The notes beneath the pieces were generated by a model. That model made no database searches, was not told the origin of the DNA, and worked only from the letters and a program-made list of their open reading frames with translations. A program made the position numbers and the translations under genes. Source: Thermoanaerobaculia bacterium (GTDB lineage: Bacteria; Acidobacteriota; Thermoanaerobaculia; Multivoradales; Multivoraceae). Taken from it: a stretch of 64,000 bases of DNA. Shown here in pieces: positions 4,864-64,000 of the stretch. Within the stretch, counting starts at the first letter, position 1, and the number at the start of each line of letters is the position of its first letter. The stretch lies in the NCBI GenBank assembly GCA_963664405.1, contig OY761158.1, forward strand, positions 899,020 to 963,019, given 5' to 3'.

Positions 4864-4914
4864 CAGGTTTCACCTCTCCGCCCTACTCTATTTAAGGGGT
4901 GGCGAGATGTCTCA

Positions 4915-7095: not shown

Positions 7096-7589
7096 CCACC
7101 ACCCTCGCCATCGTGAACCAAAAAGGAGGTGTCGGAAAGACGACGAGTACGATCAACCTCGCCTATGCCCTCGCTCAGCAGGGCAAGCGCGTTTTGATGG
7201 TGGACACTGACCCGCAAGCGAGCCTGACGAAGTACGCAGGCTATGAGCCCGACGAGCTCGAGCTCGCCGGCACGACGCTCTATCACGGCCTCACGACGCG
7301 GAAGGCGCTACGGAAGCTCATCCTCAAGAACGAGAGCGTGGACCCACATCTTCTGGCTGCAAGCAAGAACCATCACCATGACATTGGTGCTGCCGCCAAA
7401 AAGCGCGGCAACATCATGCTCCGCGATGCCCTGGCCAAGATCAAAGACGACTACGACTTTGTCCTCATTGACTCACCGCCCTGGCTCGGTAAGGTAACAG
7501 GACCAGCGGGGCCATTTGAACGAAAACCTACCGGTTTCGGTGCCGGTCCGACAGTCAGAGCCGTAGGATTCGGTAGGAGAATCACCTAA
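7092..7589 (+). pseudogene. parA: ParA/Soj-family partition ATPase, C-terminally truncated; the tail is encoded by the Tn3 inverted repeat
   Basis: MTTTLAIVNQKGGVGKTTSTINLAYALA... shows Walker A and continues through DYDFVLIDSPPWLG. The reading frame then runs into the Tn3-family IR (7508..7545) and ends after 27 unrelated residues. About 110 C-terminal residues of a normal ParA are absent. Confidence 0.75.
7508..7545 (+). repeat. Tn3-family terminal inverted repeat (left)
   Basis: See the mobile_element entry. The outer GGGG is at 7508. Confidence 0.75.
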
Positions 7590-9379
7590 TTGTCGCCCTC
7601 GATGAAGTACGTGCCGTTGGGCATGACGTGCTTGAACGGTAGCAGCGAGATGTGCGACAGATCCTCGTCGTCGATCGCCTCGCCCTCGGCTCGAAGCCGG
7701 TCGACGATCTCGCCGATCCGGACCGTGTTCCAGTACAGGATCGCGTTTGAGACGAGGCTCAGACAACTCGCCTTGTTCATGATCTCGACGTAGTCGCCGG
7801 TCGTGAACTCGCCTTGGTCGGCGAAGAAGATCCAGCGCGACAGCTTCTGTCGGTACTCTCCCTTGTTGAGCTGCTTCTGGACCGTCCGGCGCAGCTCTCG
7901 ATCGGTGAAGTATCGAAGGACGTAGTTCGTCTTCACCATGCGGCCGAGGCTGCGGACCGCCTTCGACAACCGATCGTGAGGAGACCCGCTAGTGAGGCGC
8001 TGTACGACCACGTTCGCTGGAGCCGTCCTCAGTTTGAGAGACCACGCGACCCGCATCATTGGATCCCACTGCTCCTCGATCAAGTCGAGGTCAACCGTCT
8101 TCCTCAGTAGAGGAGCGAACGCTCCTTCAGCCGAGGACCTCGATGGTCGATAGAGTTGCTGGCTCTTGAGGTTCTTGATCCGCGGCATGAAGTAGTACCC
8201 AGCAGGTAGCACAGAGCGAAGACGATCTCGGTGTAGCCATCCGTGTCGGTTGTATGTTCTCGGAGCCGGAGAATCGTGTTGTTATCGAGGAGACCGTCCA
8301 GGACGTAGAGCGCCTCCCGAGGACCACACGAGATCGCTCGCGTGCTGAAGACCGCGAACTGGTCGGAAACGTGCGTGTACAGGCTGATCCCTTTGTCGTA
8401 GTACCCGAAGTATCGGGGGTAGTACGACGCGAGGAGGCTGGCCGCACGGATCTTGAACCGCTGACCATCAGATGACGACGTCTGGCCATCGCCGTGGATG
8501 GCGCTCAGCGGTAGAGCGTGGTGAGCGTTGACGATGGCCGCGTTTGCATCATTCAGAGTCTCCTCCCGGATGTAGTAGTGGAGAACGTAGCGGAGCATGT
8601 CCAGAGTGACGCCGGTAACACTCGCGCTCATGGAAACGACGCCGAGGTTCGTTGCCTGGGAGATGATCGCTGCTAGCAGCGATTTGTAGAACTCCTCCGG
8701 CCTCGAGCGGTGTTGTTGTACCGGCAGGAAGCTCTGAGTAAAGCGGGTCGATCGATCGACATCCATGAGGAGCTGCTCGACCCGAACCAGCGGCAAGCTG
8801 GCGTTGATCATCTTCTGCAGTCGGCTCTCCGGCGGCTTCTTCTTGTCGTCTCGACGGAGCTTCAGCCTTCCTTGGTCGACCCGAGCGAATCGGTCCTGGC
8901 CATATCGACTGCCGGCTCGCCGGTTCCCGTCCTGAAACTCGTCGACAAGTCTCGGCCGCACCTCGGTAGGTTGGGGCTGCTCGAGGTCGGCAAATGAATC
9001 CGCCTTCGAATCCTCCCACCGATCGTCCGAGAGAAGGAGGTCCCAGAACGCAACGTGCTGTTTGCTCTCGGGGATGAATAGGTCCCCCGAGCGAAACGCG
9101 TCCCGGAGCGCCAGAGCCAGTCCGGTTTCCCAAGCGTTGCGATTGAGTGAGCCCGGCTCTTCTCCGGGAAGCACCGAGCGCAGGTCGCTCGCGACGAAGC
9201 CAGTCGGCGCGTCCGCGGGAAGGCTCTTGAGGGAGTCGCTCGAGTTCGTTCCCGGTCAACGACCAATCTCGGACAAGCTCGTCATCGGAAAGGCGCTCGG
9301 GTAGTGCAACCGCGTGGCGTCGCTGGCGGCCCGAGAGAAAGCGTTCCGGAGGAGGACGGTTTTCACTGATGCCGATCAC
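7586..9379 (-). pseudogene. tnpA: Tn3-family transposase TnpA remnant in three frames (9379-9260 N-terminus, 9174-8104 DDE region, 8212-7586 C-terminus); about 400 internal residues deleted
   Basis: Track ORFs 8549..9379, 8104..9174 and 7586..8212 hold, in order: the TnpA N-terminal motif (LSDDELVRDWSLT), the central DDE region (SSDGQRFKIRA...YFGYYDKGISLYTHVSDQFAVF...YVLDGLL...EHTTDTDGYTEIVFALCYLLG), and the C-terminal region (QLNKGEYRQKLSRWIFFADQGEF...LYWNTV...LSHISLLPFKHV). Total length is about 600 aa versus about 1000 for an intact TnpA. Confidence 0.8.
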
Positions 9380-13835: not shown

Positions 13836-14237
13836 GGCGCTCCATCATATCGAGGCGCGAGAAATTCCATCGCGCAACCTTGATCCAAAGAGCGAGGAAG
13901 TAGAGAGTGACTCGACTCTCGACTGCGTGGCTGCCCGGTGCCGAGCTCCTCCTGCTGCCTGGAGAGCTGCGACCCGGCGCGGCAAAGATCCCGCGCCCTA
14001 CCTCGAAGCTCTCCGACTCATGGCCGAGTTCCAACTACCAACTGGGTCCAGAAAGCGCTCCCTACCTCTCGCGGCCCGATCTCGCGCTCGGCGGCTTTCG
14101 TCGCAGCCTGACCCATTGGGAGATTCGAGTGGACTACGTCCAGCACAATATCTCGGCACTGCTGGGCTCCGAGATTCTCCTCGAAGAAGCCTCATCGAGC
14201 GCTAAAACGGGGAGCCACCGGGAGTAGAATCGACTCC

Positions 14238-23290: not shown

Positions 23291-23302
23291 GGGGACGTTG
23301 CC

Positions 23303-41128: not shown

Positions 41129-41737
41129 TCAGACTCGATTGCGATAGAGCGCGGGATCCACGACCTCGGCCATCGCTCGCCGGTCTAGCCCGCCGCCCAG
41201 AAACTCATCAAGACGACGGGCGTGAGGCTCCGGATCCGCGAGAACTTCCCTGTAGCTGACGAAGAGCGTGTCGAGATGGCGCCGATACCCCACCATGAAC
41301 CTCACGTGGCGCAGGTGCTCGACATAGACCTCGCGCATCTTCTCGTCTTCGGGGCCACTCTCCTCTTCGCGGTGCTCCAGCATCTTCTGCTGCGAGCGCA
41401 ACACTTCGCTCAGATCGCGCTCCATGAACACGACCTTGTAGTTGTTGTCGGCCGGAAGATCCTTGAGCAGGAAAGAGATGACCTTGATCGCTTTGCCTCG
41501 CGATCGGCGCAGCCATCTGCGGTCTTCCATCTTCGCAAGGTCCTTGACCCGCTCGTCTTCGTAGTAGCCCCTGGGGTTGTCGTCGTCGGCGATGCGTACG
41601 CCGTCAACGGTGACCTCGAGCCCCCCTGCCTCGAGCATCTTCATCGCCATCGAGGTGCCGGAGCGGGGCAAGCCCGAAACGACGACGACCGGTCGCCCAA
41701 AACGGATTCTTCTGAGCAGCTGGGAGAGTCCGACCAT
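41129..41737 (-). CDS. Sulfotransferase-family protein (P-loop PAPS-binding 5'-PSB motif)
   Basis: VVVSGLPRSGTSMAMKML is the 5'-phosphosulfate binding motif. 202 aa. Co-oriented with the upstream hydrolase (4-nt gap). Confidence 0.7.
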   Translation of the reverse strand: MVGLSQLLRRIRFGRPVVVVSGLPRSGTSMAMKMLEAGGLEVTVDGVRIADDDNPRGYYEDERVKDLAKMEDRRWLRRSRGKAIKVISFLLKDLPADNNYKVVFMERDLSEVLRSQQKMLEHREEESGPEDEKMREVYVEHLRHVRFMVGYRRHLDTLFVSYREVLADPEPHARRLDEFLGGGLDRRAMAEVVDPALYRNRV

Positions 41738-41873
41738 GATCGAGATTCGCCGCCGTACGATAGCGGCTCAGCAGGCCGTATCCTAGCTGAGCCAGCTTGA
41801 ATTAGCGGAACCGCGGCGCATACACTACCGCGGCGCAGCAAGGGTAGTTGGCAAACCTCAGAGACTCTCACCA

Positions 41874-44003
41874 TTGACTATTCAAGAAGGTCGCAAGCGA
41901 CCGCTCCTCCTGCTGGCCGGCAGCGCGCTGGCCTGCCTGTGCACCTCCCTCCCCGTCGCGGCCTACGTCGGCCCTGGCGCGGGTTTCGCCTTGGTCTCCG
42001 GTTTTCTCGTCATCTTCACCACCATTCTTCTCGCCGGCCTTGCGCTCCTGGTCTGGCCGTTCCGAATGATGTGGCGTCTGCTCCGTAACCGGGGTAGAAA
42101 GAAGCCTTCGATCCAACGTTTCATCGTCGTAGGACTCGACGGCCAGGACCCGCGCATCACCGACCGCCTGATCGCCGAGGGACGGCTGCCCAATCTTCAG
42201 CGGCTAGCTGAGATGGGGAGCTACGGGCGACTCGAAACGGTTTTCCCATCGCTCTCCCCCGTGGCCTGGTCGTCCTTCAGCACGGGCACCAACCCGGGCG
42301 GTCACAATATTTTCGACTTCGTCGAACGAGACACCAAGACCTACCTGCCGAAGCAGGCCTCGACCGAGATCGGCAAGCTCGAGCGCACCCTCAAGGTCGG
42401 GAAGTTTCGTATTCCTCTGCACAAGCCCACATTGCGGCTGCTACGTAAGTCCAAGCCGTTTTGGACCATCCTCGGCGAGAACAACATCTGGAGTACCGTC
42501 CTCCGCGTTCCGATTACGTTCCCACCGGATCGCTTCTACGGAGCTCAGCTCTCGGCAATGATGGTGCCCGACCTGCTCGGGACTCTCGGCACTTTCCTGT
42601 TTTTCACATCGCAGCCCAGCGCAGGTCAGATCAAAGAGGGCGGCCTTCGCTTTGAGCTCTCTCACGAGGGCGGAGCTTTTACCGCCATGATCGAGGGACC
42701 GGAGAACAGCTTCCTCGAGGGGGAGCCGCCGATGCAGATTCCCCTGCGCATTGTCCCCGACACGGCAACAGGGCGTGCCGAGATCACACTTGGCAAGGAA
42801 GTCATCGAGCTGGCGCCGAGGGAGCTCAGTAATTGGATCACGCTCACTTTCGATGCCGCGCCGGGCATCAAGGTGCAGGGGCTGACCCGCATCATGATCA
42901 CTGAGATGGGTGAGGAGGTCTCGCTCTATCTCTCGCCGATCAATCTCGACTCGGAGAAACCGGCGATGCCCATCTCCCATCCCTCCTACTACTCGACCTA
43001 CTTGTCGAAGAAGATCGGCAAGTACTCCACTCTCGGGCTTGCGGAGGACACCTGGGCCCTCAACGAAGGCATCACCGACGACGCCACCTTTCTCGAGCAG
43101 ACCTACGACATCGACAACGAGCGGCAGGAGATGTTCTTCGCCGCCCTAGATCGCCTTCGCAAAGGGGCTTTGGTCTGTGTCTTCGACGCCACCGACCGCA
43201 TTCAGCACATGTTCTGGCGCTACACCGAAAAAGGGCATCCCGCCGACTCCGGCTCCTCTGGCGGTGAGAACCGTGCCGCCATCGACGAGATCTACGTTCA
43301 CAATGACGAGTTGGTGGGCCGGGTGCTCGACAAGGTGCAGCCGAACGACGTCTTGTGTGTGATCTCGGACCACGGGTTCACCTCTTTCCGTCGCGGTGTC
43401 AACCTCAACCGTTGGCTGATGGACGAGGGTTATCTGACGCTCAAGGAAGGCGCGACGGGCGAGGGCGACCTGCTTGGTGATGTCGATTGGTCCAGGACTC
43501 GAGCGTACTTCCTCGGTCTGGCAGGGATGTTTCTCAACGTCAAGGGGCGGGAGGCGAAAGGCATCGTCTCTCGCGGCGAAGAGGCGAAGTCGTTGAAGGC
43601 CGAGATCATCGCCAAGCTCAACGGGCTTGTCGACGAAGAAAAGGGCGAGGTGGGAATCACCGAAGTCTTCGACACCGCCGAAATCTACTCGGGGCCCTAC
43701 CTCGGCAACGCACCGGACTTCATCATGGGCTACAACGAGGGCTACCGAACCTCGTGGGATTGCGCCAACGGCATCGTTGCCGGGCCCGTCTTCGAAGACA
43801 ACACGAAGGCCTGGAGTGGCGATCACGGGGTCGATCCGCGTCTCGTCCCCGGGGTCTTCTTCTGCAACCGAAAGGTCGACGCGGAAGAGCTCTCCCTGCT
43901 AGACCTGGCGCCAACGATTCTCACTCTCTTCGGCATCGAGCCTCCAAAGCACATGGAAGGCAAGCCCCTGTTCAAGCCGGACTCCTTTGGCGAGGCCGCG
44001 TGA
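41874..44003 (+). CDS. Alkaline-phosphatase-superfamily type I phosphodiesterase/nucleotide pyrophosphatase-like protein (PF01663-like), membrane-anchored, paralogue 1
   Basis: N-terminal TM helices, then IVVGLDGQDP..., ...PSLSPVAWSSFSTG..., ...VISDHGF..., ...WSGDHG.... 709 aa. Confidence 0.75.
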   Translation: MTIQEGRKRPLLLLAGSALACLCTSLPVAAYVGPGAGFALVSGFLVIFTTILLAGLALLVWPFRMMWRLLRNRGRKKPSIQRFIVVGLDGQDPRITDRLIAEGRLPNLQRLAEMGSYGRLETVFPSLSPVAWSSFSTGTNPGGHNIFDFVERDTKTYLPKQASTEIGKLERTLKVGKFRIPLHKPTLRLLRKSKPFWTILGENNIWSTVLRVPITFPPDRFYGAQLSAMMVPDLLGTLGTFLFFTSQPSAGQIKEGGLRFELSHEGGAFTAMIEGPENSFLEGEPPMQIPLRIVPDTATGRAEITLGKEVIELAPRELSNWITLTFDAAPGIKVQGLTRIMITEMGEEVSLYLSPINLDSEKPAMPISHPSYYSTYLSKKIGKYSTLGLAEDTWALNEGITDDATFLEQTYDIDNERQEMFFAALDRLRKGALVCVFDATDRIQHMFWRYTEKGHPADSGSSGGENRAAIDEIYVHNDELVGRVLDKVQPNDVLCVISDHGFTSFRRGVNLNRWLMDEGYLTLKEGATGEGDLLGDVDWSRTRAYFLGLAGMFLNVKGREAKGIVSRGEEAKSLKAEIIAKLNGLVDEEKGEVGITEVFDTAEIYSGPYLGNAPDFIMGYNEGYRTSWDCANGIVAGPVFEDNTKAWSGDHGVDPRLVPGVFFCNRKVDAEELSLLDLAPTILTLFGIEPPKHMEGKPLFKPDSFGEAA

Positions 44004-45931
44004 CCCGAGCTATTGCACTGGCCGCAACAGTGCTCCTTCTGCTCGGTTGCGGCGGAGCTAAGGCGCCGGAGAAGAGGATCATCGTCCTCGGCTTCGACGG
44101 CATGGACTACAGCCTCGCCCGTGAGCTGATCGACGAGGGGCGACTGCCCAATTTCGCCCGCCTCGAGCGCGAGGGAAGCTTCACCCCTCTCGAGACCTCC
44201 GTACCGCCCGAGAGCCCAGTGGCCTGGTCGAACTTCATCACCGGAATGGACTCGGGCGGCCATGGCATCTTCGACTTCATCCACCGCGACCCAGCGACAC
44301 TGCTTCCTTACGCCTCAGACTCGCGGGCGCTGCCGGAGGGGTTCACTCTGAAGCTCGGGAAGTGGCGTTTCCCCATCACCGGCGGTGGTTTCGAATCGCT
44401 GCGACAGGGTGAGCCTTTCTGGAAGACGCTCGAGGAGAGCGGTATCGAGACATGGATTCTGCGTATGCCCGCCAACTACCCGACCTCGGGTCTCGCGACT
44501 CGGGAGCTCAGCGGCATGGGCACACCGGACCTCAACGGGGCGAGCTTCTTTTCCTTCTACACGTCGGAGCTCTTCTACCCCACTGAAGGGATCACCGGCG
44601 GCGAAGTTTTCGAGTGGGATGTGTACGACAACGTGGCCGAGCACAAGCTCTTCGCAGCCGAGAACCCGTTGATCGAGGATGGCGAAAGGCTCAGCGTCGA
44701 CTTCAAGGTGTACCTCGATCCGGCGATCCAGGCGGCCAAGATCGAGGTCGCCGACGATGTCGAGCTCGTACTTCGCGTCGGAGAGTGGAGCGACTGGGTC
44801 GCCATCGAGTTCGACCTTCTTCCGTTCAAGAGTCTGCATGGCATCTGTCGCTTCTATCTCAAGTCGATCGAGCCAGAGCTCGAGCTCTACGTGAGCCCGA
44901 TCAATTTCGATCCGCTGCTACCGGACGCACCGATCTCGACACCGGCGTCCTACGCCACCGAGCTGGCCGAGGCCGACGGCCGTTTTTACACCCAGGGCAT
45001 GCCGGAGGACACCAAGGCTCTGACCGGCGGCGTGCTCGAGATCGACCAGTTCCTCGAGCAGGCTGCGATTGCGGGTCGAGAGATCGCGGACCAGTACCAG
45101 AGTGTTCTGGCAGACTTCACCGACAGCACTGCGGGGCTGCTCTTCTATTACACCGGCAACCCGGACCAGATCTCCCACGCGATGTGGATCACCCGGGACC
45201 CCCAACACCCGGCTTGGGATGAAGAGACCTACGGCCGATACCGCGATCTCATTCCCAGCGTCTACGAGAGCCTCGACCGGATGGTGGGTCACACCCTCGA
45301 CACCATGAGCTCTGACACCACCCTGGTGGTGATGTCAGATCACGGGTTCGCTTCCTGGCGACGCAGCCTGAACCTCAACACCTGGCTGGTGGAGAACGGT
45401 TTCATGGTTCTCAGCGACCCGGACCTCGAGGTCGACCCCGGCTTCTTCGGCAACGTCGATTGGAGCCGTACTCGTGCCTACGGCATGGGCATCAACGGCT
45501 TGTACATCAATCTCCAGGGGCGCGAGAAAAACGGCGTCGTCTCGCCGAGCGAGCGCGAAGCGTTGATGGACGAGATCGCGACCGCGCTCCTCGCGACCAT
45601 AGATCCGGAGACCGGCGCACCCGCCGTAACCAAGGTCTACCGGCGCGAGGAGGTCTATAAAGATCGCGGTCAGCTGGAGATAGGACCCGATATCCAGATG
45701 GGTTACGCGAAGGGCACTCGCGGCTCGAGCCAAGGGGCGCTCGGAGATATCGAGCCTCAAGTCCTGCGCGACAATCTAGACGACTGGAGTGGCGACCACA
45801 TAATGGACCACGAAAGCGTGCCGGGCGTCCTCTTCACCAGTCGCCAACTGGCACGCGAGGCACCGAGCCTAAAGAGCCTTGCAGCCGCGATCATCGCCGA
45901 GATGGACGTCAAAGCAGAGTTCCCGCAGTAG
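43999..45931 (+). CDS. Alkaline-phosphatase-superfamily phosphodiesterase-like lipoprotein (PF01663-like), paralogue 2
   Basis: GTG start overlaps the paralogue-1 stop (GTGA). Lipobox LLLGCGG. ...IIVLGFDGMDY..., ...PPESPVAWSNFITG..., ...VMSDHGF..., ...WSGDHI.... Confidence 0.75.
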
Positions 45932-49487: not shown

Positions 49488-49634
49488 CGGTTTTCCTCCA
49501 CACTCCTCATCATACGGGTTCCGGGGTCTGCTAGCCACGAGCCTCACTCCGGAAGGATAGCCTAGCTCACCCATCGACCTCTACCGGCATACAATGCGTT
49601 CTCTCCCAAGCTTCCGACAGGAGGAAGAGATCTC

Positions 49635-51485
49635 ATGCGCTCCAGGCCGCTGACATTGTTTCTCTGTACTGCGCTCTTTGCGACATACGCGGTTGATTCT
49701 GCCAATGCTGCGCAGCAGGCTGCGGCACCCGCCGGCGACGACTGGCCGATGTATCGCGGCGATCTGGCCGGCACCGGCTACTCGGCCCTGGCCAAGATCA
49801 CCCCCGCCAACGTTTCGAGCCTCACGCGGGTGTGGACCTACTCTCTCGAACGCACCAATGGGGGTGGCGGAGGCAACCTCCAGGCGACGCCCATCGTTGT
49901 CGGAAACGTAATGTACCTCCCCGCAGCAGACCGCGTGGTCGCGCTCGAGCCCGCGACAGGGAGCGAGATCTGGCGACATCTCGTCACTGACGGCAGCCCC
50001 TCTCGCCGCGGTGTCGCCTACTGGCCGGGCGAGGGCCGAACGCCCCCACGCATCATCTTCACCGCCGGACGCCGACTGCTCGCTCTCGATGCCGCGACCG
50101 GCGCACCGATCTCGAGCTTCGGGCACAACGGCGAAGTCGACATGGTGGTGCCCTACAACTCGGTTCCTCTCGTCCATCGCAATGTCGTCGTCGTCGGCGC
50201 CAACACTCCACCTGGAACGAGCGGCGGCATCGGCAATGCAAGAGCCTACAACGCACGCACCGGCGCCAAGTTGTGGGAATTCAGCTCGGTGCCACTGCCC
50301 GGTTCCGTGGGTCATGACACCTGGGAAGGCATGAGCTGGAAGGACCGACTCGGCGCCAACGCGTGGCCGTTCTATTTCACCGTCGATGATGAGCGCGGGC
50401 TCCTCTACATACCGCTCGCCTCGCCCATCCCCGGCTACTACGGTGGCGACCGCAAGGGCGCCAATCTGTTCGGAAACTCCGTTGTCGCGGTAGACCTCCA
50501 AACAGGTGAGTACAAGTGGCACTTCCAGACCATCCATCACGACCTCTGGGATGCTGATCCCCCCGCGCCTCCTGTCCTGTTCGACATCAAAAGAAGTGAT
50601 CGAACGATCCCGGCACTCGGCCTGACCACCAAGTCGGGCTACGTCTACATTCTCGACCGTGCCACCGGAGAGCCGATCTTCGGGGTCGAAGAGCGCGCGG
50701 TTCCCGCAAGCGACGTCCCGGGCGAGGCTGCGTATCCGACTCAGCCATTCCCCACGAAGCCGCTGCCGGTGGGTCGTGTGAGCTACGAGCCTGAGGACCT
50801 GGTGACCGCCGCAGACACGAGCGCGGAGCACGCCGCCGCCTGCGCCGAGCTACTCGCGACCCTCGGTGAAGTCCACAACGCCGGGCCCTTCACCCCCTGG
50901 GCCTATCGCACCGACGGCGCTCCCGCCAAGACCACGTTGAATTTTCCCGGAGGCCTCGGCGGACACAACTGGGGCGGCGGCGCCTTCGACCCATCCTCCG
51001 GCTATCTCTTCGTCGTCAACCAGGACGTCGGTGCGCTGGGCTGGATGGTCGACTCCGACGACCCGACGCGAGGGTCGTATCGGCGCGTCGGCCCAAGGCC
51101 CGCAAGCTTTGAAGTTCAAGTCGGGGGAGTCCGAATGCCATGCCAGAAACCACCCTGGGGCCGACTCACAGCGATCGACTCCTCGACCGGGGACATCGCC
51201 TGGCAGCGCCCTCTCGGCATTACCGAGCAGCTCCCTCCAGACCGCCAGAACACCGGACGGCCCGTACGAGCCGCAGCCATCGTCACCGCCAGTAGCCTGC
51301 TCTTCGTCGCTTCGACCGACGACAACCGCTTCCGAGCCTTCGAAGCGACAACGGGCAAGGAGTTGTGGGAAGACCGACTCCCCCGACACGGAAATGCCAA
51401 CCCCATGACCTATCGGGGCAACGACGGCAAGCAGTACATCGCTCTGGTCGCGCTCGATACGTTACTCGTCTACGGGCTGCCGTAG
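49635..51485 (+). CDS. PQQ-dependent beta-propeller dehydrogenase (glucose/aldose dehydrogenase-type quinoprotein), secreted
   Basis: Signal peptide. [14 protein letters not shown]... and repeated W-motifs ([38 protein letters not shown]) mark the PQQ propeller. Confidence 0.8.
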
Positions 51486-51664
51486 CTCCCCCGGTACTCA
51501 CCAGCCCCCCAGGGTCTGTGACGGCCATTCTTCGGCCGCGGACGCCCCCGTCGCCGCCAACCCCTCCAGATCAGGAGGCCAAGCATCACCTGTTAGGCTA
51601 CCTCTCACTGCCTCTACCGGCAGTTGAGCCCGATCTGGCTCGCCGAGATGCCGATCCCTCCCAG

Positions 51665-53119
51665 ATGACCCGGATTGCAGAGATCGTCGTCGCAACGGCC
51701 AGGTCCTGGCCGCGGCGGAGCGCACGCGGATTGCGCGCGGCCGCCCTGTTGCCATTCCTCGGTAGCTTGGCGTGCGTCAGCGAGGCACCGCGAAAGGGCA
51801 AGCCCACTATCGTGATCGTCATCGCCGACGATCAGGGCTGGGGCGACCTCAGCCATCACGGCAACACCAACCTCGAGACACCGAACATCGATTCGTTGGC
51901 TCGAGACGGCGCCAGCTTCCGCCACTTCTTTGCCAGCGCGGTGTGCTCGCCGACGCGTGCCGAGCTCCTCACCGGCCGTTACCATCCGCGAGGCGGCGTA
52001 CGCGGGACCAGTGCGGGAGCCGAGCGATTGGATCTCGATGAACGTACTCTCGCCGAGACCTTCAAGCATGCCGGCTACGCGACCGGCGCCTTCGGCAAGT
52101 GGCACAACGGTAGCCAGCATCTCTACCATCCGAACGCGCGTGGATTCGACGAGTTCTACGGCTTCACCTCGGGCCACTGGGCGCTCTACTTCGATCCACC
52201 GCTGGATCACAACGGTCGAGCCGTCCGCGGGAGCGGCTTCATCATCGACGACCTCACCGATCATGCGCTGAGCTTCATCGAAGACAACGCCGCGAAGGGC
52301 GAGCCTTTCTTCCTCTATGTCCCGTACAACACGCCGCACTCGCCGATGCAGGTACCCGATCGCTTCTACGAGCGCTTCGCCGGCGCGGAATTGCCTCTCC
52401 GCCATCGCGACCCGGACAAAGAAGATCTCGAGCACACGCGCGCGGCAATGGCGATGGTAGAGAACATCGACTGGAACGTCGGCAGACTCCTCCACCGGCT
52501 CGACGAGCTCGGTCTGGGGGACGACACCCTCGTTCTCTATATGAGCGACAACGGTCCCAACGGCTGGCGCTGGAACGGTGGCATGAAGGGGCGCAAGGGC
52601 ACCCTCGACGAAGGAGGCCTGCGGGTTCCGGCCTTCGTGCGCTGGCCGGGGAAGATTGATGCAGGGCAGGAGGTTGAGCCGATCGCTGCCGCCATCGACC
52701 TGCTACCGACTCTCGCCGAGCTGGCTGGAGTCGAGGTTGTGGGTGACCGGCCCCTCGACGGCCGGAGCTTGGCGCCGCTTCTTGTCGGCGAGCGAGCGCA
52801 GGAGACGTGGCCGGACCGCGAGATAGCCAGCTTCCACCGTGGCGAGGTCACTCTTCGCACCCAGCGCTTCCGCCTCGACCCCGAGGGTCGCTTGTTCGAT
52901 CTGCAAGAGGATCCGGGTCAACGCGTCGACATCACCGACAAGCAACCGGCCGAGGCTCGACGGCTGCAAAGATTGGCGGAAGAGCTCTCCGCCGAGATGG
53001 CCGGAGAGCTCGGGCCGGTAGACGATCGACCGTTCCTTATCGGAGGAGACCGCGATACCTTGGAGACCTGCTCGAGCACCCGATGCGGCGGGCAGTGGTT
53101 TCGTCTTCAACTCTGGTGA
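51665..53119 (+). CDS. Arylsulfatase (formylglycine-dependent sulfatase)
   Basis: Start trimmed to MTRIAEIV. ...[14 protein letters not shown]...[15 protein letters not shown]... is the C-x-P-x-R FGly motif, followed by the GKWH block. Confidence 0.85.
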
Positions 53120-55255: not shown

Positions 55256-56734
55256 CTAGAAGAAGAGCTGAACCCGTTCCCCGTGGAGCTCATGCACTGT
55301 CGAACGGGTGGCGGGCCACATCGGGTCCGCCAGGGTGGAATTCCAGCTCGCAAGCTCGCCTTCGAGACGCTCGACGATCTCCGGATGCTCCTCGGCAAGG
55401 TTGGTCTGCTCACCCTCATCCACAGACAGGTCGTAAAGCACGGTCATCTGGCCCATCGGCGATTCGCCGGAGTGCGCCACCACCGGTAACAATCGCGGAA
55501 AGGCCGCGAAGTCGTCGTCACCGAGATCGGTCTTGTTCACCTTCCACATTTTCCACTTTCCCCATCGCACCGCGAGATTGGGCTTGGCACGCCAGAACAG
55601 TAGCTCGTGTGGCGGCCCGGTCGCCGCGTCGAGGAGGTGGGGCATCAGATCGACGCTATCAAGCCCGCGCTCTTCGGAACCGGCGACGGCGGCAAAGGTC
55701 GAGTAGAGATCCAGCGAGATGATCGGCTCACGGTACACGGTGCCCCGCGCCAGCCTGGCCGGCCATTTGAAGAGGAACGGCACTCGAATGCCGCCTTCGA
55801 GGTGATAACGCTTGGCGCCACTCAGAGGCGCGTTGGTGCAGATCTCTGCCGGCATGTAATTGACGCAGCCGTTGTCTGAGAAAAACACGACCAAAGTGTT
55901 CTCCTCGAGCCCGTGCTCACGAAGCTCGTCCACCACGTCGCCGACGTAGTCGTCCAACGACGCCACCATCGCCGAATAGATCCGCCTGCCGTCCTCCTCG
56001 ATGTGGGCATAGCGGTCGGTGTATTCGGCGGTTGCCTGGATCGGCGTGTGGGGGGTCTTGGGGGTGAGCATCAGAAAGAAGCGCTCTTCCTTGTGACGGG
56101 CGATGAAGTCCACCGCCTTGTCGGCATAGACGTCGGTCAGATAGCCCTCGACTTCGACCCGTTCGAAACCGTCGAAAGCCATCGCGGGGGTCATCGGCGC
56201 CATGTCGGCCGGCCACGATTGCACTCCCTCGACTCTGGAATCGATGTAGGAAGCGCTACTGCCGCCGAAGAATTCGTCGTAGCCGCGGTTGAGCGGGTTG
56301 TGCGGCTCATCTTGGCCGAGGTGCCACTTGCCGATCAGTCCGGTGACATAGCCCGCGTCTTGCATCAGATTGCCCAAAGTTCTGAGATCGGTCGGCAGCT
56401 TCGCGACCCCGCCTCCCGAGTCGTTGAACTCATAGCCGAAGCCGGTCGGGTAGCGACCGGTCTGCAACCCCGCACGAGACGGACTGCACACCGCGGCGGC
56501 GACATAGCCGTCGGTCAGACGAACGCCGTCGCGGGCCAGCCCATCGATATGGGGCGTTTGAATCGTCGTCCCACCGTAAGCCCCGAGATCACCGTAGCCA
56601 AGATCGTCGGCCAGAATGACCACGATATTGGGCGGCTCGTACGAAGTCTCCGTGGACGGTGGCGCGTCGGTTGTGGGCAGCTCGCCACACGCCGCGAGCG
56701 AAAGGGCAAGCAGAAAAGTCGGTGAGCGCCTCAT
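55256..56734 (-). CDS. Arylsulfatase lipoprotein
   Basis: Lipobox LALSLAACGE. IVVILADDLGYGDL...AAVCSPSRAGLQTGRY... and the GKWHLG block. Confidence 0.85.
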   Translation of the reverse strand: MRRSPTFLLALSLAACGELPTTDAPPSTETSYEPPNIVVILADDLGYGDLGAYGGTTIQTPHIDGLARDGVRLTDGYVAAAVCSPSRAGLQTGRYPTGFGYEFNDSGGGVAKLPTDLRTLGNLMQDAGYVTGLIGKWHLGQDEPHNPLNRGYDEFFGGSSASYIDSRVEGVQSWPADMAPMTPAMAFDGFERVEVEGYLTDVYADKAVDFIARHKEERFFLMLTPKTPHTPIQATAEYTDRYAHIEEDGRRIYSAMVASLDDYVGDVVDELREHGLEENTLVVFFSDNGCVNYMPAEICTNAPLSGAKRYHLEGGIRVPFLFKWPARLARGTVYREPIISLDLYSTFAAVAGSEERGLDSVDLMPHLLDAATGPPHELLFWRAKPNLAVRWGKWKMWKVNKTDLGDDDFAAFPRLLPVVAHSGESPMGQMTVLYDLSVDEGEQTNLAEEHPEIVERLEGELASWNSTLADPMWPATRSTVHELHGERVQLFF

Positions 56735-56812
56735 TAGACCTCCGGTAGCGTGAAGAACGTGAGTACCCTATGCTGACAGAATCGGTCGTAGCGAACCAGG
56801 ACCGATTAGAAG

Positions 56813-58279
56813 ATGAGCTCGGTAACGCCCTTCCTCCCCGCTCTGCTACTCCTCGCTGGGTGCCGGGGTCCAGATCCTTCTCGCCGTGACTCTCGTCGAG
56901 CAACCTTCCCCGCACTGACGGTCGCCGAGGCTCCAACAACGGCGAGGACCCCGGAGGGTCAGTACATCTCGTGGAAGGAGCACCGCATCGACGATCAAGA
57001 CCTGAACGGCGGCATCGAGCTGCGCGGCGGTGACGGCCTCCAGATGGCCGACCTCGATCGCGACGGTCACCAGGACATCGTCTCGGTCCACGAAGACAAC
57101 TACCACATTCGTCTCGCCTTCGGCACCGACGATCCGGACCGGTGGGAGCTCGCGACCTTGGCGGAAGGCGAGGAGGCGAACGCCGCCGAAGACGTCTCGA
57201 TCGCGGACGCCAATGGCGACGGCTGGCTGGACATCGTCGCCGCGACCGAGCTGGCGCACCTGATCTACTTCCAGAACCCCGCAGACCCCACCGAGACACG
57301 CAGTGGCGCATGGCCGCGCACGATCCCGCCGGGCACACGAGACCGAGGCTCCTGGATCCGGGTCTTCTTTGGCGACTTCGACGGCGACGGCAGGCCGGAA
57401 GTCTCGGGTCCGAACAAAGGCGACCAACTTCCCGCCGAAAAAGAAGGACCGGCCGAGTTCGCACCCAAAGAGATCTCCTGGTTCGAGCTACCCGGGGACC
57501 CTCTTGCCGGCGATCTGTGGGAAGAGCACGTGCTGGTGCGGATCAAGATCCCGATGAACGCTCGACCTGTAGACCTCGATCGCGACGGCGACCTCGACAT
57601 TCTCGGTGGCAGCCGCTTCGAGATGCGCCCCTTCTGGTTCGAGAATGTCGGAGGGTCGCCGACCGACTTCGAGCTTCACCCGATCGACGTAAGCGGTCGC
57701 AACCAGGCGCAGCCGGAGATCTTCGGCGGCAAGTGGCTGACAGCGATGAACGTCGTCATCGAAGACCTCAACGACGACGGCCGGCTCGACATCATCCTCC
57801 AGGAGACGCCCTTCATAGTCAGCTGGATGGAGCAGCCTCCAAGCTTCAACCAGCCCTGGCAGCTACACAAGATCGGCGACTTGAGCCCCGACACGTCGAC
57901 CGGTCTTACCTTGGTCGACATCGACGGCGACGGGCGCAAGGATCTATTCACCGGCGGCTACAGCCAGAACCCTCGCGATCATGACGGTGAGGACATCACC
58001 ACGAACAGCCAGACCGGACGCCTTGCATGGTGGAAGCAGCCGGCGGACCCGAGCGCCGAGTGGACCCTGCACAACGTCAGCCGTCGCAAGCGCGGCATGT
58101 ACGACCAGTTCGTCGCCCGCGACATGGATGGTGACGGAGACGTCGACTTCGTCACCACGCGAGGCAACAGCGGGACTTACGACGGCGTACTCTGGCTCGA
58201 GCAGGTCCGCACTGCCGAGCAGACCCGGTCGTTCCTGCCGGCCCGCGAGAAGGAGAGCGCCCACCTCCCCCTGCCCTAG
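56813..58279 (+). CDS. FG-GAP/VCBS-repeat (integrin-alpha-like beta-propeller) lipoprotein
   Basis: Lipobox LLLLAGCRG. Repeated D-x-D/N-GDG Ca-binding-like loops (ADLDRDGHQD, ADANGDGWLD, FDGDGRPE, DLDRDGDLD, LNDDGRLD, DIDGDGRKD, DMDGDGDVD). Confidence 0.75.
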   Translation: MSSVTPFLPALLLLAGCRGPDPSRRDSRRATFPALTVAEAPTTARTPEGQYISWKEHRIDDQDLNGGIELRGGDGLQMADLDRDGHQDIVSVHEDNYHIRLAFGTDDPDRWELATLAEGEEANAAEDVSIADANGDGWLDIVAATELAHLIYFQNPADPTETRSGAWPRTIPPGTRDRGSWIRVFFGDFDGDGRPEVSGPNKGDQLPAEKEGPAEFAPKEISWFELPGDPLAGDLWEEHVLVRIKIPMNARPVDLDRDGDLDILGGSRFEMRPFWFENVGGSPTDFELHPIDVSGRNQAQPEIFGGKWLTAMNVVIEDLNDDGRLDIILQETPFIVSWMEQPPSFNQPWQLHKIGDLSPDTSTGLTLVDIDGDGRKDLFTGGYSQNPRDHDGEDITTNSQTGRLAWWKQPADPSAEWTLHNVSRRKRGMYDQFVARDMDGDGDVDFVTTRGNSGTYDGVLWLEQVRTAEQTRSFLPAREKESAHLPLP

Positions 58280-58280
58280 C

Positions 58281-58720
58281 CGGGGAAAATGATGGATATC
58301 ATTTCCCCCGACTAGTTGTTCTTTGGCGCCGAGGACGGCGCACTCAGGCGGTGCTTCCTATTCGCTCCGGGCAGCGGTCCGGTTTCCTTCCGCGCAGACT
58401 CCTCTAGGAAGCCTGGACCACAGGAGCTACGGGTGCGCCGTCCTCGGCGTCCTTCCCGAGAGCGGCTCCGCAGGAGCCGGTCGAGTTGACCGCCGTGGAG
58501 CTCGCGCCAGCGAGGTCACAAGAACAACAATGAGCCGGAGGAAATGATAGCCATCATTTCTGGAGGCGAAGCCCGAACGCTAGGAGAGTGTCCGAGTATT
58601 CGGCCAGAGCCGTTTCCCGGAGCGAGTAGGAAGCAACGCCCTAGTGCGCCGTCCTCGGCGCCAACAACAATGAGCCGGAGGAAATGATAGCCATCATTTC
58701 TGGAGGCGAAGCCCGAACAC
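58281..58720. repeat. Dense composite repeat array: three AAATGAT-N4-ATCATTT palindromes (58286-58307, 58541-58560, 58685-58704); a 55-bp inverted-repeat pair built on GGCGCCGAGGACGGCGCAC (58324-58380 versus 58605-58662); and a 57-bp direct repeat (58519-58576 and 58663-58720) that duplicates the last codons of the PQQ-ADH gene
   Basis: Read directly from the sequence. The modules match those at 9654-9815 and 21016-21062. The region lies between the convergent 3' ends of 56813..58279 and 58694..60358. Confidence 0.7.
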
Positions 58721-60358
58721 GAAGAGCGCGCTGCCGGCGGCGGCAGCTACGTACTGCTTACCTTCGACGGCATACGTGATCGGACAGCTGGCAATCGACC
58801 CGCCCAGAGTCGCCTTCCACAGCAGCTCACCCGTCTTCGCATCGAGGGCGTGGAAATAGCCCTCGCGGCCGCCGGCGAAAACGAGGTCGGAGGCCGTGCT
58901 CAAGACGCCACTCTGAGTGACATCGGTCATCTTGAATCGCCAACGCTGCTCGCCCGTTCGCGGATCGAGAGCCAGTACCGCACCGTTGGCGACGTCTTCG
59001 GTCCAGTTATTGATCAGTGGGCGACCCCTACCCGTCACGCCCGGCGCTCCGGGGTTCGGACTGGTCGGCGGACCACCCAAGAAGCGTTGACCGGGTCGGT
59101 ACTCGACCTCCACCGGTCGGAACACATGTCCGCAGTTCTCCCATGCAGAAACGTAGATCAGCTCGGTGTTGGGGCTGAACGAAGGAGAAAACCAATTCGT
59201 GCCTCCGGGAACGCAAGGGTAGGTCGTCGCTCCGAGGGGTTGAGGGGTCTCGATCGGTCGTCCCTTCTCGTCGAGCCCGCTAGCCCAGTTGACCTTGACG
59301 AAGGGCGTCCCCCTGATGAATTCGCCGGTGGCGCGGTCGAGCACATAAAAGAAGCCGTTGCGGTTTGCCCACAGCATGAGCTTGTCGCTGCCCACTCCGG
59401 TGACGTCTAGATCGACGAGCACAGGAACCTGGACCGCGTCATAGTCATAGTCATCGTTGGGAGTGAACTGGAAGTGCCACTCGAGCTCGCCGGTATCGGC
59501 GTCGAGCGCGACGACAGAGTCGGAGTAGAGGTTGTCGCCGGGTCGTTGGGCCGGATTCCAGTCCGGCCCCGGGTTGCCGATGCCCCAGTAAGTGAGGTTG
59601 AGCTCGGGGTCGTAGGAGCCGGTGACCCACACCGACGCACCACCATGCTCCCAGGCGTCGCCGCCGCCCTCCCAGGTCTCATGGCCAGGCTCCCCGGGCC
59701 CCGGGATGGTGTAGAAACGCCACACTTCATCCCCGCTCACGGCATCGTAGGCGGCAATGAACCCGCGGATTCCGTACTCGCCGCCGGCAACGCCGACGAC
59801 GACCTTGTCACCGATGACCAGGGGAGCCAGGGTCATCGCGTAGCCCAGACTGGGGTCGGCAACCGCGGTCTTCCAGATCGGTCGGCCGGAGATGGTGTCG
59901 ATCGCGATCAACTGCGCGTCGATCGTCGCCATGAACAGAGTCTCGCCGAGAATGGCGAGGCCCCGGTTCACCGAACCACAGCACGGTCTCGACTCGGAGG
60001 AAGGGACGTGCTCATACCTCCAAAAGGCACTTCCGAGCTTGGCGTCGAGAGCGATCACGGTGTTCGGCGCTTCGGTCAGATACATAACACCGTCGACCAC
60101 CAGCGGAGTGGTCTCGAACTTTTCCAACGACCGAGCCTGGAACACCCACTTCATTTCCAGCTCGCCAACGTTGTCCGGTGCGATCTGCCGTAACAGACTG
60201 TGGCGGGTACTCGCGTAATCGCCGGAATAGGTGAGCCAGTTGTGCGGCTCTTTCGCGGCTTCGAGCAGGCGTTTGGACGTCACCTGTGCGCTCAGGCTCT
60301 GAGCCGGCAGCATCAGCGAGAGAAGCAACAGGCCGGCACGACTCATGAGTCTGCGCAT
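58694..60358 (-). CDS. PQQ-dependent alcohol dehydrogenase (methanol/ethanol family, XoxF/ExaA-like)
   Basis: Start trimmed to MRRLMSRAGLLLLSL, a signal peptide. ...NWLTYSGDYASTRHSLL..., the CC ring (RPCCGSVNRG) and propeller W-motifs follow. The start overlaps the upstream cytochrome stop (TAATG). Confidence 0.85.
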   Translation of the reverse strand: MRRLMSRAGLLLLSLMLPAQSLSAQVTSKRLLEAAKEPHNWLTYSGDYASTRHSLLRQIAPDNVGELEMKWVFQARSLEKFETTPLVVDGVMYLTEAPNTVIALDAKLGSAFWRYEHVPSSESRPCCGSVNRGLAILGETLFMATIDAQLIAIDTISGRPIWKTAVADPSLGYAMTLAPLVIGDKVVVGVAGGEYGIRGFIAAYDAVSGDEVWRFYTIPGPGEPGHETWEGGGDAWEHGGASVWVTGSYDPELNLTYWGIGNPGPDWNPAQRPGDNLYSDSVVALDADTGELEWHFQFTPNDDYDYDAVQVPVLVDLDVTGVGSDKLMLWANRNGFFYVLDRATGEFIRGTPFVKVNWASGLDEKGRPIETPQPLGATTYPCVPGGTNWFSPSFSPNTELIYVSAWENCGHVFRPVEVEYRPGQRFLGGPPTSPNPGAPGVTGRGRPLINNWTEDVANGAVLALDPRTGEQRWRFKMTDVTQSGVLSTASDLVFAGGREGYFHALDAKTGELLWKATLGGSIASCPITYAVEGKQYVAAAAGSALFVFGLRLQK

Positions 60359-61170
60359 TAGCTCAACCCCTTCAAGGACAGTAGGTAGGCCAGCACGTCG
60401 GCTCTCTCTTCCGCCGTCAGGGTCTCTTCGTACGAAGGCATATCCGAGGAGGTGAGGATCGTGAGCTCGCGGAGAGTGACCTTTTCCAGCGAGACCAGAC
60501 GCTCGTGATCGTCGATGAGCTGGACGGTGAAGGTGTCTTCGTTGATGCGGCGACCGTTGATCACCGTCCCATCGCTCTTTACGACTCTCACCGGGCGGTT
60601 GATCGGTAGTGTCGAGCCTTCCGAACCGAGGATCGCTCGTTCGAGCTGAGCCGCGGTGCGAACGGAGCCTATGTTGCTCAGATCCGGCGCGGAGCGCGGC
60701 CCTCGACCGAAGACCCTGTGACAGCTTCCGCACTCGCCCTTGCCTTCGAAGAGGGCCTGACCCTGTCCGCCATCACCGAGCGAGATCGAGCCGAGATTGG
60801 CGGTCGTGATGTTGCGAACGTAGGCGACCAGAGCCGTGATCTCGGGGGCGGTGTACTCGGTCGGCGTCATCTGCGTTCCCGGAATTCCGTCACGAATATT
60901 GTTGCCAAGAAGAGCGTCGCTCGGAGAGTTCGGGAAGTCCCCGAGGCGAAGATTGACCTTGCGCTCCATGTCGCCGTTCTCGCCGTGGCAGGAAACACAG
61001 TGATTACTGTAGAGGTAGAACCCGTACTCGATGTCGGTCTGTTCGTAGCCACCCGCATCCTGGGCGCCGAGAGGAAGCCCTGCCATCACCACCATCGATG
61101 CAACTCCGACCGACGCCCGCTTGAACGATCCGTACCCGACCCGTACTATCCACTGCCATCGGTTCTTCAT
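60358..61170 (-). CDS. Diheme c-type cytochrome (CVSCH and CGSCH), likely electron acceptor of the downstream PQQ-ADH
   Basis: Start trimmed to MKNRWQWIV..., a signal peptide. Two CxxCH motifs. Translationally coupled to the PQQ-ADH. Confidence 0.8.
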   Translation of the reverse strand: MKNRWQWIVRVGYGSFKRASVGVASMVVMAGLPLGAQDAGGYEQTDIEYGFYLYSNHCVSCHGENGDMERKVNLRLGDFPNSPSDALLGNNIRDGIPGTQMTPTEYTAPEITALVAYVRNITTANLGSISLGDGGQGQALFEGKGECGSCHRVFGRGPRSAPDLSNIGSVRTAAQLERAILGSEGSTLPINRPVRVVKSDGTVINGRRINEDTFTVQLIDDHERLVSLEKVTLRELTILTSSDMPSYEETLTAEERADVLAYLLSLKGLS

Positions 61171-61204
61171 GATTGATGAGATTCTACTCACTTCGAGGTA
61201 ACTC

Positions 61205-62305
61205 GTGCCGCACACTCCCATCGGCCGTCTGACGATACTCCTTGCCGCCGTCGCCACCGGCTGCGGAGCGACCGTCGCGATCGCGCAGCGCGGTGCCGAT
61301 TTCGGCACCGAACCGCCTCATGTCATTCTGGTCATGGCCGATGACCTGGGCTGGGGCCAGACCAGCTACTACGGCCACCCTCTCCTCGAGACTCCGAACC
61401 TCGACGCCATGGCCGACAACGGACTGCGCCTCGACAGGTTCTACGCCGGCGCCCCTTCCTACACTCCGACCCGAGCCAGCGTGCTCACCGGTCGCAACAA
61501 CGATCGTACCGGGGCGGTCCGGGTTCCCGGCCCGATCAACAAGCAGGAGAAGATGATGCCGGTCGCCTTTCAGAATGCGGGCTACGCGACCGCGCATTTC
61601 GGCAAATGGCATCTCAACGGGCTCCACGCCAGGCCGGGTTTACCCATCCTGAAAGAAGACCCTTACCATCCCGGTGAGCTGGGCTTCGACTACTGGCTCA
61701 GCTGCTCGAACAATTTCGATCGCGACCCGATCCTGAGTCGCAACGGCGACATCGAAGAATTCGAGGGTGACTCCTCGGAGATCCTCGTCGAGGAGGCGCT
61801 CAGCTTCATCGAGCGAGAGACGGCCCAAGACAAGCGCGTTTTCGTGGTCATATGGTACTCCTCGCCACACCGGCCGTTGGCCGCGTCCGAGGAGGACGCC
61901 AAGCCCTTTAGCCATCTCGATCCGGGCTCCCGCGACCACCATGGCGAGATTGTGGCGATGGATCGCTCCATCGGCGCCCTACGCAGTGGCCTTCGCGACC
62001 TCGGCATCGCCGAGAACACTCTGGTCTGGTTCAAGAGCGATAACGGCGGCCTACCCGACATCGACTACGGCCCTGGCTACGGCCCCATCGTGCCGGATAC
62101 CACCGGCCATCTGCGAGGATTCAAGAAGGACTCCTACGAGGGCGGTCTGCGGGTGCCTGCGCTGATCGAGTGGCCGGAGCGCATTCAGCCACGAATCACC
62201 CACTACCCCACCAGCACGATGGACATCTTTCCCACCCTGATCGAGGTCGCGGGCCTCGACCCCCGCCGGCTGCCGAGAACCGTCCCTATTCACCGTCAGT
62301 CGATC
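61205..62305 (+). CDS. Sulfatase N-terminal catalytic domain (FGly-dependent) lacking the usual about 100-aa C-terminal subdomain; abuts DUF3604 in another frame
   Basis: Signal peptide. ...HVILVMADDLGWGQ...APSYTPTRASVLTGRN... is the C/S-x-P-x-R-type motif region, then the GKWHL block. Sulfatase-like sequence runs to about ...IHRQSIALIP, after which frame 2 degenerates and stops at 62485. Confidence 0.7.
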
Positions 62306-62310
62306 GCACT

Positions 62311-64000
62311 TATCCCGACAACGTCTATTGGGGCGACACCCATCTCCACACCTATCTGTCGGGAGACGCTTTCACTCTCGGCACCCGCCTCACACCTGAG
62401 GACGCCTATCGCTTCGCAAAGGGAGAGACCCTTCGAGCGACCGGCGGCGAGAAAGTACGGCTTCGCCGCCCACTCGACTTTCTGATGGCGGGCGATCATG
62501 CAGAGAATCTGGGAGCGGTGCCGCGGCTCGCAGCCGGTGATCCGAGAGTCGAGGCAAGCGAAGACGGCCGACGCTGGGCGGAAGTGCTCGCGAGCATTCC
62601 AGCGCTACCGGATATTCTGAACGCCGCAGATCCTGAAGGCTTCGATCAGGGCAATCGCGAGCTGGGGATCGCCAAAGGCGCTTGGCAGGCCGGCTATGCG
62701 ATCGATGACGACTTCAGGCGCGAGGTCTGGCACGAAGTCATTGCCGTTGCCGAGAAGCACAACGACCCCGGTAGATTCACCGCCTTTGCCGGCTTCGAGT
62801 GGAGCGGGAGGGACCCCGGCATGATCCACAGAAACGTCCTCTTTGCCGGCGGGCCGGAACAGACCCAACAGGTGCTGCCCTTCTCACGCTTCGACAGCGA
62901 CAATGAAGAAGACCTCTGGTCCTACCTACAGGACTACATGGATCGGGTCGGGGGCGAAGTGATTGCCATTCCGCACAACAGCAACCTGAGCGGCGGCCGC
63001 ATGTTCCGGCCAACCAACTACGACAACCAGCCGTTCACAAGAGCCTACGCCCAGACGCGCTCCTCCTTGGAGCCCATCGTCGAGGTAACCCAGATCAAAG
63101 GCGACAGTGAGACTCACCCGATCATCGCACCTAACGACGAATTCGCCGACTACGAGACCTGGGGCGGCAGCCCTCCCAAGGCTAAGCCGGGGGCGCCGGC
63201 GCCGGACCTCGCCCTCTATGAAGAGAGCGTGGCCAACTCGTATGCCCGCTCGGCGTTGAAGGCAGGGTTGGGTCACGAGGCCGAGCTGGGGGTGAATCCC
63301 TTCAAATTCGGCATGATCGGCAGTACCGACTCCCACACCGCTCTCGCCACCGCCGACGAGGACAACTTCTGGGGCAAGATGGGCCTCAACGAGCCCAGTC
63401 CTTACCGAGCTGTCAAGCAGTGGAGTTTCAGCTCTTCCGGATACGCGGCGGTGTGGGCCGAAGAGAACACCCGAGAATCTCTGTTTGCGGCGATGAAACG
63501 TCGCGAGGTCTATGCCACCACGGGTCCGCGAATGACCGTGCGCTTCTTCGCCGGCTGGGACTACTCCGCCGACGATGCAGCGAGTCCGAAGCTGTCAGAC
63601 ATCGGCTACGGCAAAGGAGTACCCATGGGCGGCGACCTGGCTCGGGCCCCCACAGGGAAGGTGCCCAGCCTGTTGATTCGAGCAGTGAAGGACCCCGACG
63701 GCGCCAACCTGGATCGCGTGCAAGTGGTCAAAGGCTGGCGCACCAGCTCCGGCGAGCTGCTCGAGCGCGTTTACGACGTAGCTCTCGCTGATGGCAGAAC
63801 CGTGGACGCGAAGGGCAAGGTGCAGCCCGTGGGCAGCACGGTCACTCTGCAGGAGCCTACGTACTCGAACAACATTGGCGACCCCGAGCTGTATGTGGTT
63901 TGGCGCGACCCGGATTTCGATCCCGACGAGCTCGCCTTCTACTACGTGCGAGTGCTGGAGATCCCGACGCCGCGCTGGACGGCCTACGATGCCAATTTCT
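62311..64000 (+). CDS. DUF3604-family protein, N-terminally truncated (no start codon or signal peptide in frame); continues past the window end
   Basis: Frame 1 from 62311 gives YPDNVYWGDTHLHTYLSGDAF..., the hallmark N-proximal DUF3604 motif, and reads open to 64000. The upstream frame-1 stop at 62041-62043 is followed by no ATG or GTG with a signal peptide. Confidence 0.7.

Follow-up and report, generated by a model that had tools for sequence, protein, structure and literature searches.

At the right end of a 64,000-nucleotide stretch of the genome of a Thermoanaerobaculia bacterium (GenBank assembly GCA_963664405.1, contig OY761158.1, positions 899,020 to 963,019 of the forward strand; hereafter the window), a sulfatase gene runs into a gene of the DUF3604 family that is read in a different frame. 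This arrangement is very probably the product of a real and recent 519-bp deletion that spanned the border between a pair of overlapping genes and would have left two pseudogenes. From the anatomy of the locus and its comparison with an intact relative, the deletion is likely to be present in the organism itself and neither of the two products is likely to be functional. The features of the locus are the following.

61205-62263, forward strand: sulfatase remnant, amino acids 1-353 of the frame-2 open reading frame (ORF), ending in ...IEVAGLDP, with a complete N-terminal catalytic domain.
61460-61462, forward strand: TAC codon of Tyr86, which replaces the catalytic Cys of the sulfatase (motif Y-T-P-T-R instead of C-x-P-x-R).
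62041-62043, forward strand: TAA that closes frame 1 upstream of DUF3604.
62170-62172, forward strand: GTG, the sole canonical frame-1 start between the 62041 stop and the DUF3604 homology, 31 codons upstream of that homology.
62260-62264, forward strand: putative deletion scar, with the junction at 62263/62264 and 1 nt of microhomology (C), in a run of five C created by the join.
62263-64000, forward strand: DUF3604 remnant in frame 1, open and continuing past the window end, starting at the codon that matches residue 19 of its closest homologue, P0001.
62264-62485, forward strand: end of the sulfatase ORF, where 73 out-of-frame codons and a TGA read the DUF3604 gene in its +1 frame.

A first-pass annotation of this DNA, made from the letters alone, had described a sulfatase catalytic domain abutting DUF3604 in another frame, and this was confirmed by two Pfam matches that are far beyond chance. 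The frame-2 ORF (61205-62485, forward strand) encodes 426 amino acids from a GTG start, with GAGG 8 nt upstream and a signal-like N-terminus, and its residues 38-350 match PF00884 (Sulfatase) over profile positions 1-300 of 301 (E = 9.6e-52, 176.6 bits against a cut-off of 25). The motifs DDLGWG, GKWH and DNGG, which we take to be the metal and substrate sites of the family, are all present, and homologues are labelled arylsulfatase A-like or N-acetylgalactosamine-6-sulfate sulfatase. The same ORF is on record as protein P0121 (426 amino acids), from a 6.78-Mb contig. In frame 1, PF12228 (DUF3604) is matched over profile positions 3-563 of 591 (E = 1.5e-208, 694 bits against a cut-off of 20.4), and the motif WGDTHLHT begins at 62329. 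As had been stated, a stop at 62041 closes this frame, which then stays open as far as the window reaches; position 64000 falls inside the gene, with profile positions 564-591 beyond view. No promoters or terminators were found in 60900-62700.

The sulfatase was also correctly described as lacking its C-terminal subdomain. No sulfatase homology was found by the Pfam scan beyond amino acid 353 of the frame-2 ORF, and no subdomain of the PF16347 or PF14707 type follows the core; the SGSH_C profile matches only at positions 10-54 of 154, below the cut-off. Homologues that are 59-73% identical extend by a median of 131 residues past the place where their homology with the window protein stops. The ORF thus resembles type I sulfatases in its complete N-terminal catalytic domain and in its 59-73% identity to full-length homologues, but differs from them by the Tyr at the formylglycine site, by the deleted C-terminal subdomain (about 130-155 amino acids) and by the 73-residue out-of-frame tail.

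The best DUF3604 match in the protein collection was P0001 (625 amino acids, ENA sample ERZ27250328), with 92% amino acid and 90% nucleotide identity to the window copy. P0001 is encoded on a 2588-bp metagenome contig, L001, on which the 3' part of a sulfatase gene lies directly upstream (L001 2-598). The first 43 residues of the L001 sulfatase product are identical to the window protein and are followed by 155 further residues, and the TGA of the sulfatase gene overlaps the ATG of the DUF3604 gene (ATGA at 595-598). Because of this stop/start overlap, the two genes are one base out of frame already in the intact state.

When the two sequences were compared base by base, window positions 62134-62263 aligned to L001 1-130 (129-130 of 130-131 nt, 99%) and positions 62263-64000 aligned without gaps to L001 649-2386 (90% overall, about 95-97% up to about 63560 and about 70% after that). 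L001 positions 131-649, which amount to 519 bp or 173 codons, are absent from the junction, and this segment was not found elsewhere in the window. Lost with it are 155 sulfatase codons and the stop, together with DUF3604 codons 1-18, which comprise the start and the signal peptide. The breakpoints have a single base (C) in common, in addition to an imperfect GAC..CC repeat. The first-pass annotation had suspected a deletion that fused the 5' part of a sulfatase to DUF3604, and the comparison with L001 upholds the event but not its estimated size, given as losses of about 100 and about 40 codons. The frame switch had been placed at 62305-62311, with no homopolymer at that point. By homology and by the L001 mapping, the junction is instead at 62263/62264, and the stretch that had been assigned to the sulfatase (RRLPRTVPIHRQSIALIP) is what the DUF3604 leader yields in the wrong frame; the run of five C at 62260-62264 lies exactly on this junction and is the only homopolymer of at least five bases in 62200-62330. 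Since 519 is a multiple of three (3 x 173), the ancestral one-base offset survives the deletion, so that the -1 frame of DUF3604 is explained by the ATGA overlap and no indel error is needed, in line with the earlier view that this is not a simple indel error.

A likely course of events would begin with an ancestor in which an exported sulfatase of about 510 amino acids was directly followed by an exported DUF3604 protein, the two genes sharing ATGA and being offset by one base. The next step would have been an illegitimate deletion, essentially free of microhomology, that took the 155 sulfatase codons, the stop and the 18 DUF3604 codons. The sulfatase ORF would now run through 73 nonsense codons into DUF3604 until it stops at 62485, and its product would be dead in three ways, through the Tyr in place of the formylglycine Cys, the loss of the C-terminal subdomain and the junk tail. 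DUF3604, left with no plausible start or export signal, would either not be made or be mislocalised. In having one same-strand deletion over the 3' end of the first gene and the 5' end of the second, with minimal microhomology, the locus resembles known pseudogenes and fusions formed by deletions between adjacent genes. It differs from such fusions in that the join is out of frame and no fusion protein is expected, and in that the offset comes from the ATGA overlap and not from the length of the deletion.

The start of the DUF3604 gene was examined in the sequence upstream of base 62263, where homology begins (PPAAENRPYSPSVDR...) and where frame 1 of the window reads ...PPAAENRPYSPSVDRTYPDNVYWGDTHLH. 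P0001 has the N-terminus MRAVLAMLLVWSTSAAGQPPAGENRPYSPSVDRTFPDNVYWGDTHLH, of which the first 18 residues are missing from the window copy. It had been claimed that frame 1 holds no ATG, GTG or signal peptide upstream of DUF3604; neither an ATG nor a signal peptide was found there, but a GTG is present at 62170. No Shine-Dalgarno (AGGAGG-like) sequence is evident upstream of this GTG, which sits within the translated sulfatase ORF, and the leader that it would give is hydrophilic (best 10-amino-acid Kyte-Doolittle score -0.45) and derives from sulfatase sequence in the wrong frame. A hydrophobic leader is found 20-94 residues before the WGDxHxH motif in 119 of the 120 listed DUF3604 homologues, and the lone leaderless one looks like a late start call. 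The window copy resembles the family in its profile match, its WGDTHLHT motif and its 92% identity to P0001, and differs in having lost its start codon and a signal peptide of 18 residues; a start codon followed by a hydrophobic leader before the YSP...WGD region, as in a complete gene, was not found. The window DUF3604 therefore probably goes untranslated or, at most, yields a protein in the wrong compartment.

The sulfatase carries a further lesion at its active site. In type I sulfatases the Cys or Ser of the C/S-x-P-x-R motif is converted to the catalytic formylglycine, and Tyr is not convertible. All 119 listed sulfatase homologues have Cys in this alignment column and Tyr occurs only in the window ORF, which consequently has no C/S-x-P-x-R motif; the Cys is kept in the two other sulfatases of the window (51296-53119, forward strand, and 55256-56767, reverse strand). 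Given that Tyr86 cannot become formylglycine, the deletion would not have been needed to inactivate the enzyme. The Cys-to-Tyr change appears to be a second, independent lesion, and fits a sulfatase gene that was already, or subsequently became, free of selection. The earlier suggestion that both genes are dead is thus probably right, in view of Tyr86 and the lost subdomain on one side and of the missing start and signal peptide on the other.

One point against this interpretation is that the ancestral state is drawn from one close relative (a 2.6-kb contig) and from the general architecture of the homologues. An exact search of GTDB genomes and JGI metagenomes with a 27-mer from the left flank common to the window and L001 (CTGATCGAGGTCGCGGGCCTCGACCCC) gave no match, and no second assembly of either allele, with the junction or intact, was found. 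A metagenome scan with P0001 found no DUF3604 relatives above 65% identity, and a protein search with the C-terminal piece of the L001 sulfatase found no sulfatase relatives above 64%. It also counts against the interpretation that the DUF3604 frame is fully intact, with 579 codons aligned to L001 without gaps or stops and a ratio of nonsynonymous to synonymous substitution rates (dN/dS) of 0.15 that gives no sign of relaxation, and on these grounds a recent pseudogene is not separable from a gene that is somehow expressed. As this ratio sums over all of the divergence between the lineages, its sole message is that the deletion happened recently, and a recent event is also what a frame still open over 579 codons suggests. 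A further point is the absence of the window's own DUF3604 protein from the protein collection, which fits annotation as a pseudogene and proves nothing. Compared with L001, the identity falls from about 95-97% (up to about 63560) to about 67-82% at window positions 63560-63960 (L001 1946-2346), which suggests that this part of the C-terminal beta-sandwich may be a recombined or fast-evolving segment.

A rival explanation is that the organism carries the intact pair and that 519 bp were dropped in assembly or consensus, or that a minority deletion allele was placed in the contig. The source appears to be a contig of 6.78 Mb, a length that suggests assembly from long reads and perhaps from a mixed population, and the junction was found in no second assembly. 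Such an artefact is nevertheless improbable, as the breakpoints have only 1 nt in common and would offer no repeat for an assembler to collapse, the flanks are collinear with L001, and the Cys-to-Tyr change damages the sulfatase regardless of the deletion; being independent, the Tyr86 lesion supports real decay over an assembly fault. More unlikely still is that the deletion is real but that a miscalled base conceals an in-frame newborn fusion. If the run at 62260-62264 were in truth six C, a single exported chimera would result: DUF3604 would have exchanged its signal peptide for a sulfatase N-domain that is catalytically dead but has a signal peptide of its own. With one C added, the frame does stay open for 932 codons or more (...IEVAGLDPPPAAENRPYSP...), the junction coincides with the only nearby homopolymer of at least five bases, the sulfatase core domain ends, and mature DUF3604 is predicted to begin, right at the join, and the DUF3604 frame is intact; if true, a gene fusion would have been caught at birth via a single deletion. 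This would, however, require an error at exactly that base, in a homopolymer that is short. About 30 long ORFs of the window were scanned against Pfam and most looked intact (apart from a Tn3 transposase with a clear frameshift and the possibly truncated ORF at 14112-15395), so indel errors do not seem common in this assembly. Nor was a natural sulfatase-DUF3604 fusion, which the first-pass annotation had raised as an alternative, found in relatives: no protein with both PF00884 and PF12228 was among the 240 listed homologues (120 listed matches of either search), no stop-to-stop ORF with both domains was present in 165 related loci (86 + 79), and in L001 the two are an adjacent separate pair. 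The sulfatase part of such a fusion, without nucleophile and C-terminal subdomain, would be passenger sequence at best.

Similarly small is the chance that DUF3604 still functions as a cytoplasmic protein, made from the GTG at 62170 or by reinitiation. The in-frame GTG 31 codons upstream of the homology, the intact ORF and the dN/dS of 0.15 versus L001 would agree with this, but this codon is internal to the translated sulfatase ORF and no Shine-Dalgarno-like sequence precedes it, the leader is out-of-frame sulfatase sequence that is not hydrophobic, and the export build is found in 119 of the 120 listed DUF3604 homologues. The least credible of these explanations, which can practically be set aside, is a deliberate sulfatase-DUF3604 fusion produced either by programmed -1 ribosomal frameshifting or by slippage of the polymerase at the C run. 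As in dnaX and the IS3 transposases, coding regions in frames 0 and -1 do follow one another on the same strand here, with a C run at the switch. In contrast to genes with programmed frameshifts, no X XXY YYZ heptamer is found in the sulfatase frame in 62044-62330, and the closest relative, L001, keeps two separate complete genes, so the arrangement has no evolutionary history; to our knowledge, five C are too short for known cases of transcriptional slippage.

Taken as a 519-bp deletion that left two pseudogenes, the locus is a case of ordinary gene decay, and its value lies chiefly in annotation. The two ORFs at 61205-64000 are best marked as pseudogenes, with P0121 seen as a truncated, nucleophile-less sulfatase remnant with a junk tail. 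More generally, a one-base offset between abutting domains need not mean a sequencing error; in this case it is probably the footprint of an ancestral ATGA overlap.

The relatives also gave some information on DUF3604 itself. For six close homologues the contigs were read, and one or more sulfatase genes lay beside four of them (P0001, P0002, P0009 and P0013) and none beside P0006 and P0011; genes of the beta-lactamase family and esterase genes were often nearby. Among 80 DUF3604 loci from GTDB genomes, 12 had a sulfatase within 10 kb (4/5 of the closest and 8/75 of the others), and among 79 metagenome loci 13 had one within 4 kb, again mostly the closer ones. The link between DUF3604 and sulfatases is thus clade-specific and frequent but not fixed, contrary to the fixed association that had been entertained, and these counts are descriptive only. 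A weaker companion reading is that in this clade DUF3604 and sulfatases may act jointly, DUF3604 as a secreted PHP-type metallohydrolase.

An AlphaFold model of P0001 (predicted local distance difference test score 85, predicted template modelling score 0.87) matches PHP-family metal-dependent phosphoesterases and has in addition a C-terminal immunoglobulin/fibronectin type III-like sandwich. WGDTHLHT is presumably the PHP-type HxH metal motif, and the invariant His, Asp and Glu columns of the DUF3604 alignment (A2) fit a metal site of this type. With a PHP-type barrel fold and histidine and aspartate metal ligands, DUF3604 would belong to the PHP superfamily and may be a secreted PHP-like metal-dependent phosphoesterase fold joined to a beta-sandwich, which is a lead at the level of fold only. 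A search of PDB sequences with the DUF3604 profile gave nothing significant, and nothing useful on DUF3604 or PF12228 was found in the literature searched. The export build, the PHP-like fold and the sulfatase, esterase and beta-lactamase-family neighbours are modest leads for an uncharacterised family and do not concern the locus in the window.

Some further arrangements were seen among the DUF3604 relatives. Tandem paralogues are common, with 2-4 copies in a row (L010, L021, L025, L031, L033, L052, L053, L055, L057, L113 and others). P0092, a protein of 918 amino acids from a Desulfobacterales metagenome-assembled genome, naturally joins esterase domains (PF00756, PF12146) to DUF3604 in one chain, and esterase genes also occur in the DUF3604/sulfatase clusters of L002-L004. 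The sulfatase/DUF3604 cluster of one relative (L004 14701-17248) has decayed in a similar manner: a 113-residue N-terminal DUF3604 remnant (profile positions 7-93) lies beside a C-terminal piece (588-640), a beta-lactamase-family gene is split in two (135 and 166 amino acids) and the sulfatase has only 269 amino acids. P0242, encoded at a scaffold end on a contig that also bears DUF3604, is a short piece of a sulfatase and is uninformative.

The last 23 kb of the window are rich in genes for sulfatases and proteins of the alkaline phosphatase superfamily, which form an island at 41129-61171. The features of this island, and a further gene upstream of it, are listed below.

23291-25444: third pyrroloquinoline quinone (PQQ) dehydrogenase of the window, with an N-terminal cytochrome c domain.
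41129-41767, reverse strand: sulfotransferase.
41787-45931, forward strand: two large Phosphodiest-type proteins.
49566-51485, forward strand: PQQ dehydrogenase.
51296-53119, forward strand: sulfatase with intact Cys.
55256-56767, reverse strand: sulfatase with intact Cys.
56810-58279, forward strand: FG-GAP repeat protein.
58694-60733, reverse strand: PQQ dehydrogenase.
60358-61171, reverse strand: dihaem-type cytochrome c.

Three other regions of the window have split or overlapping frames. The Tn3-family transposase at 7586-9255 (reverse strand) is a second broken gene of the window and lies inside a mobile element; positions 2-193 of the DDE_Tnp_Tn3 profile are matched in 9255..8104 and positions 191-389 in 8281..7586, and the shift, near 8195-8205, looks like the loss of one base in GGT TAC (ctgggtactacttcatg). 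The AICARFT_IMPCHas ORF at 14112-15395 (forward strand) matches its Pfam profile only from position 74 of 311 and is overlapped by an upstream ORF (13904-14227) without a Pfam match, and the region 13904-15395 may represent an N-terminal truncation, a frameshift or a naturally short form. An IS3-like element at 3305-4869 (reverse strand) carries HTH_Tnp_1 and rve/rve_3 in two overlapping frames, which is the usual frameshifted layout of that family.

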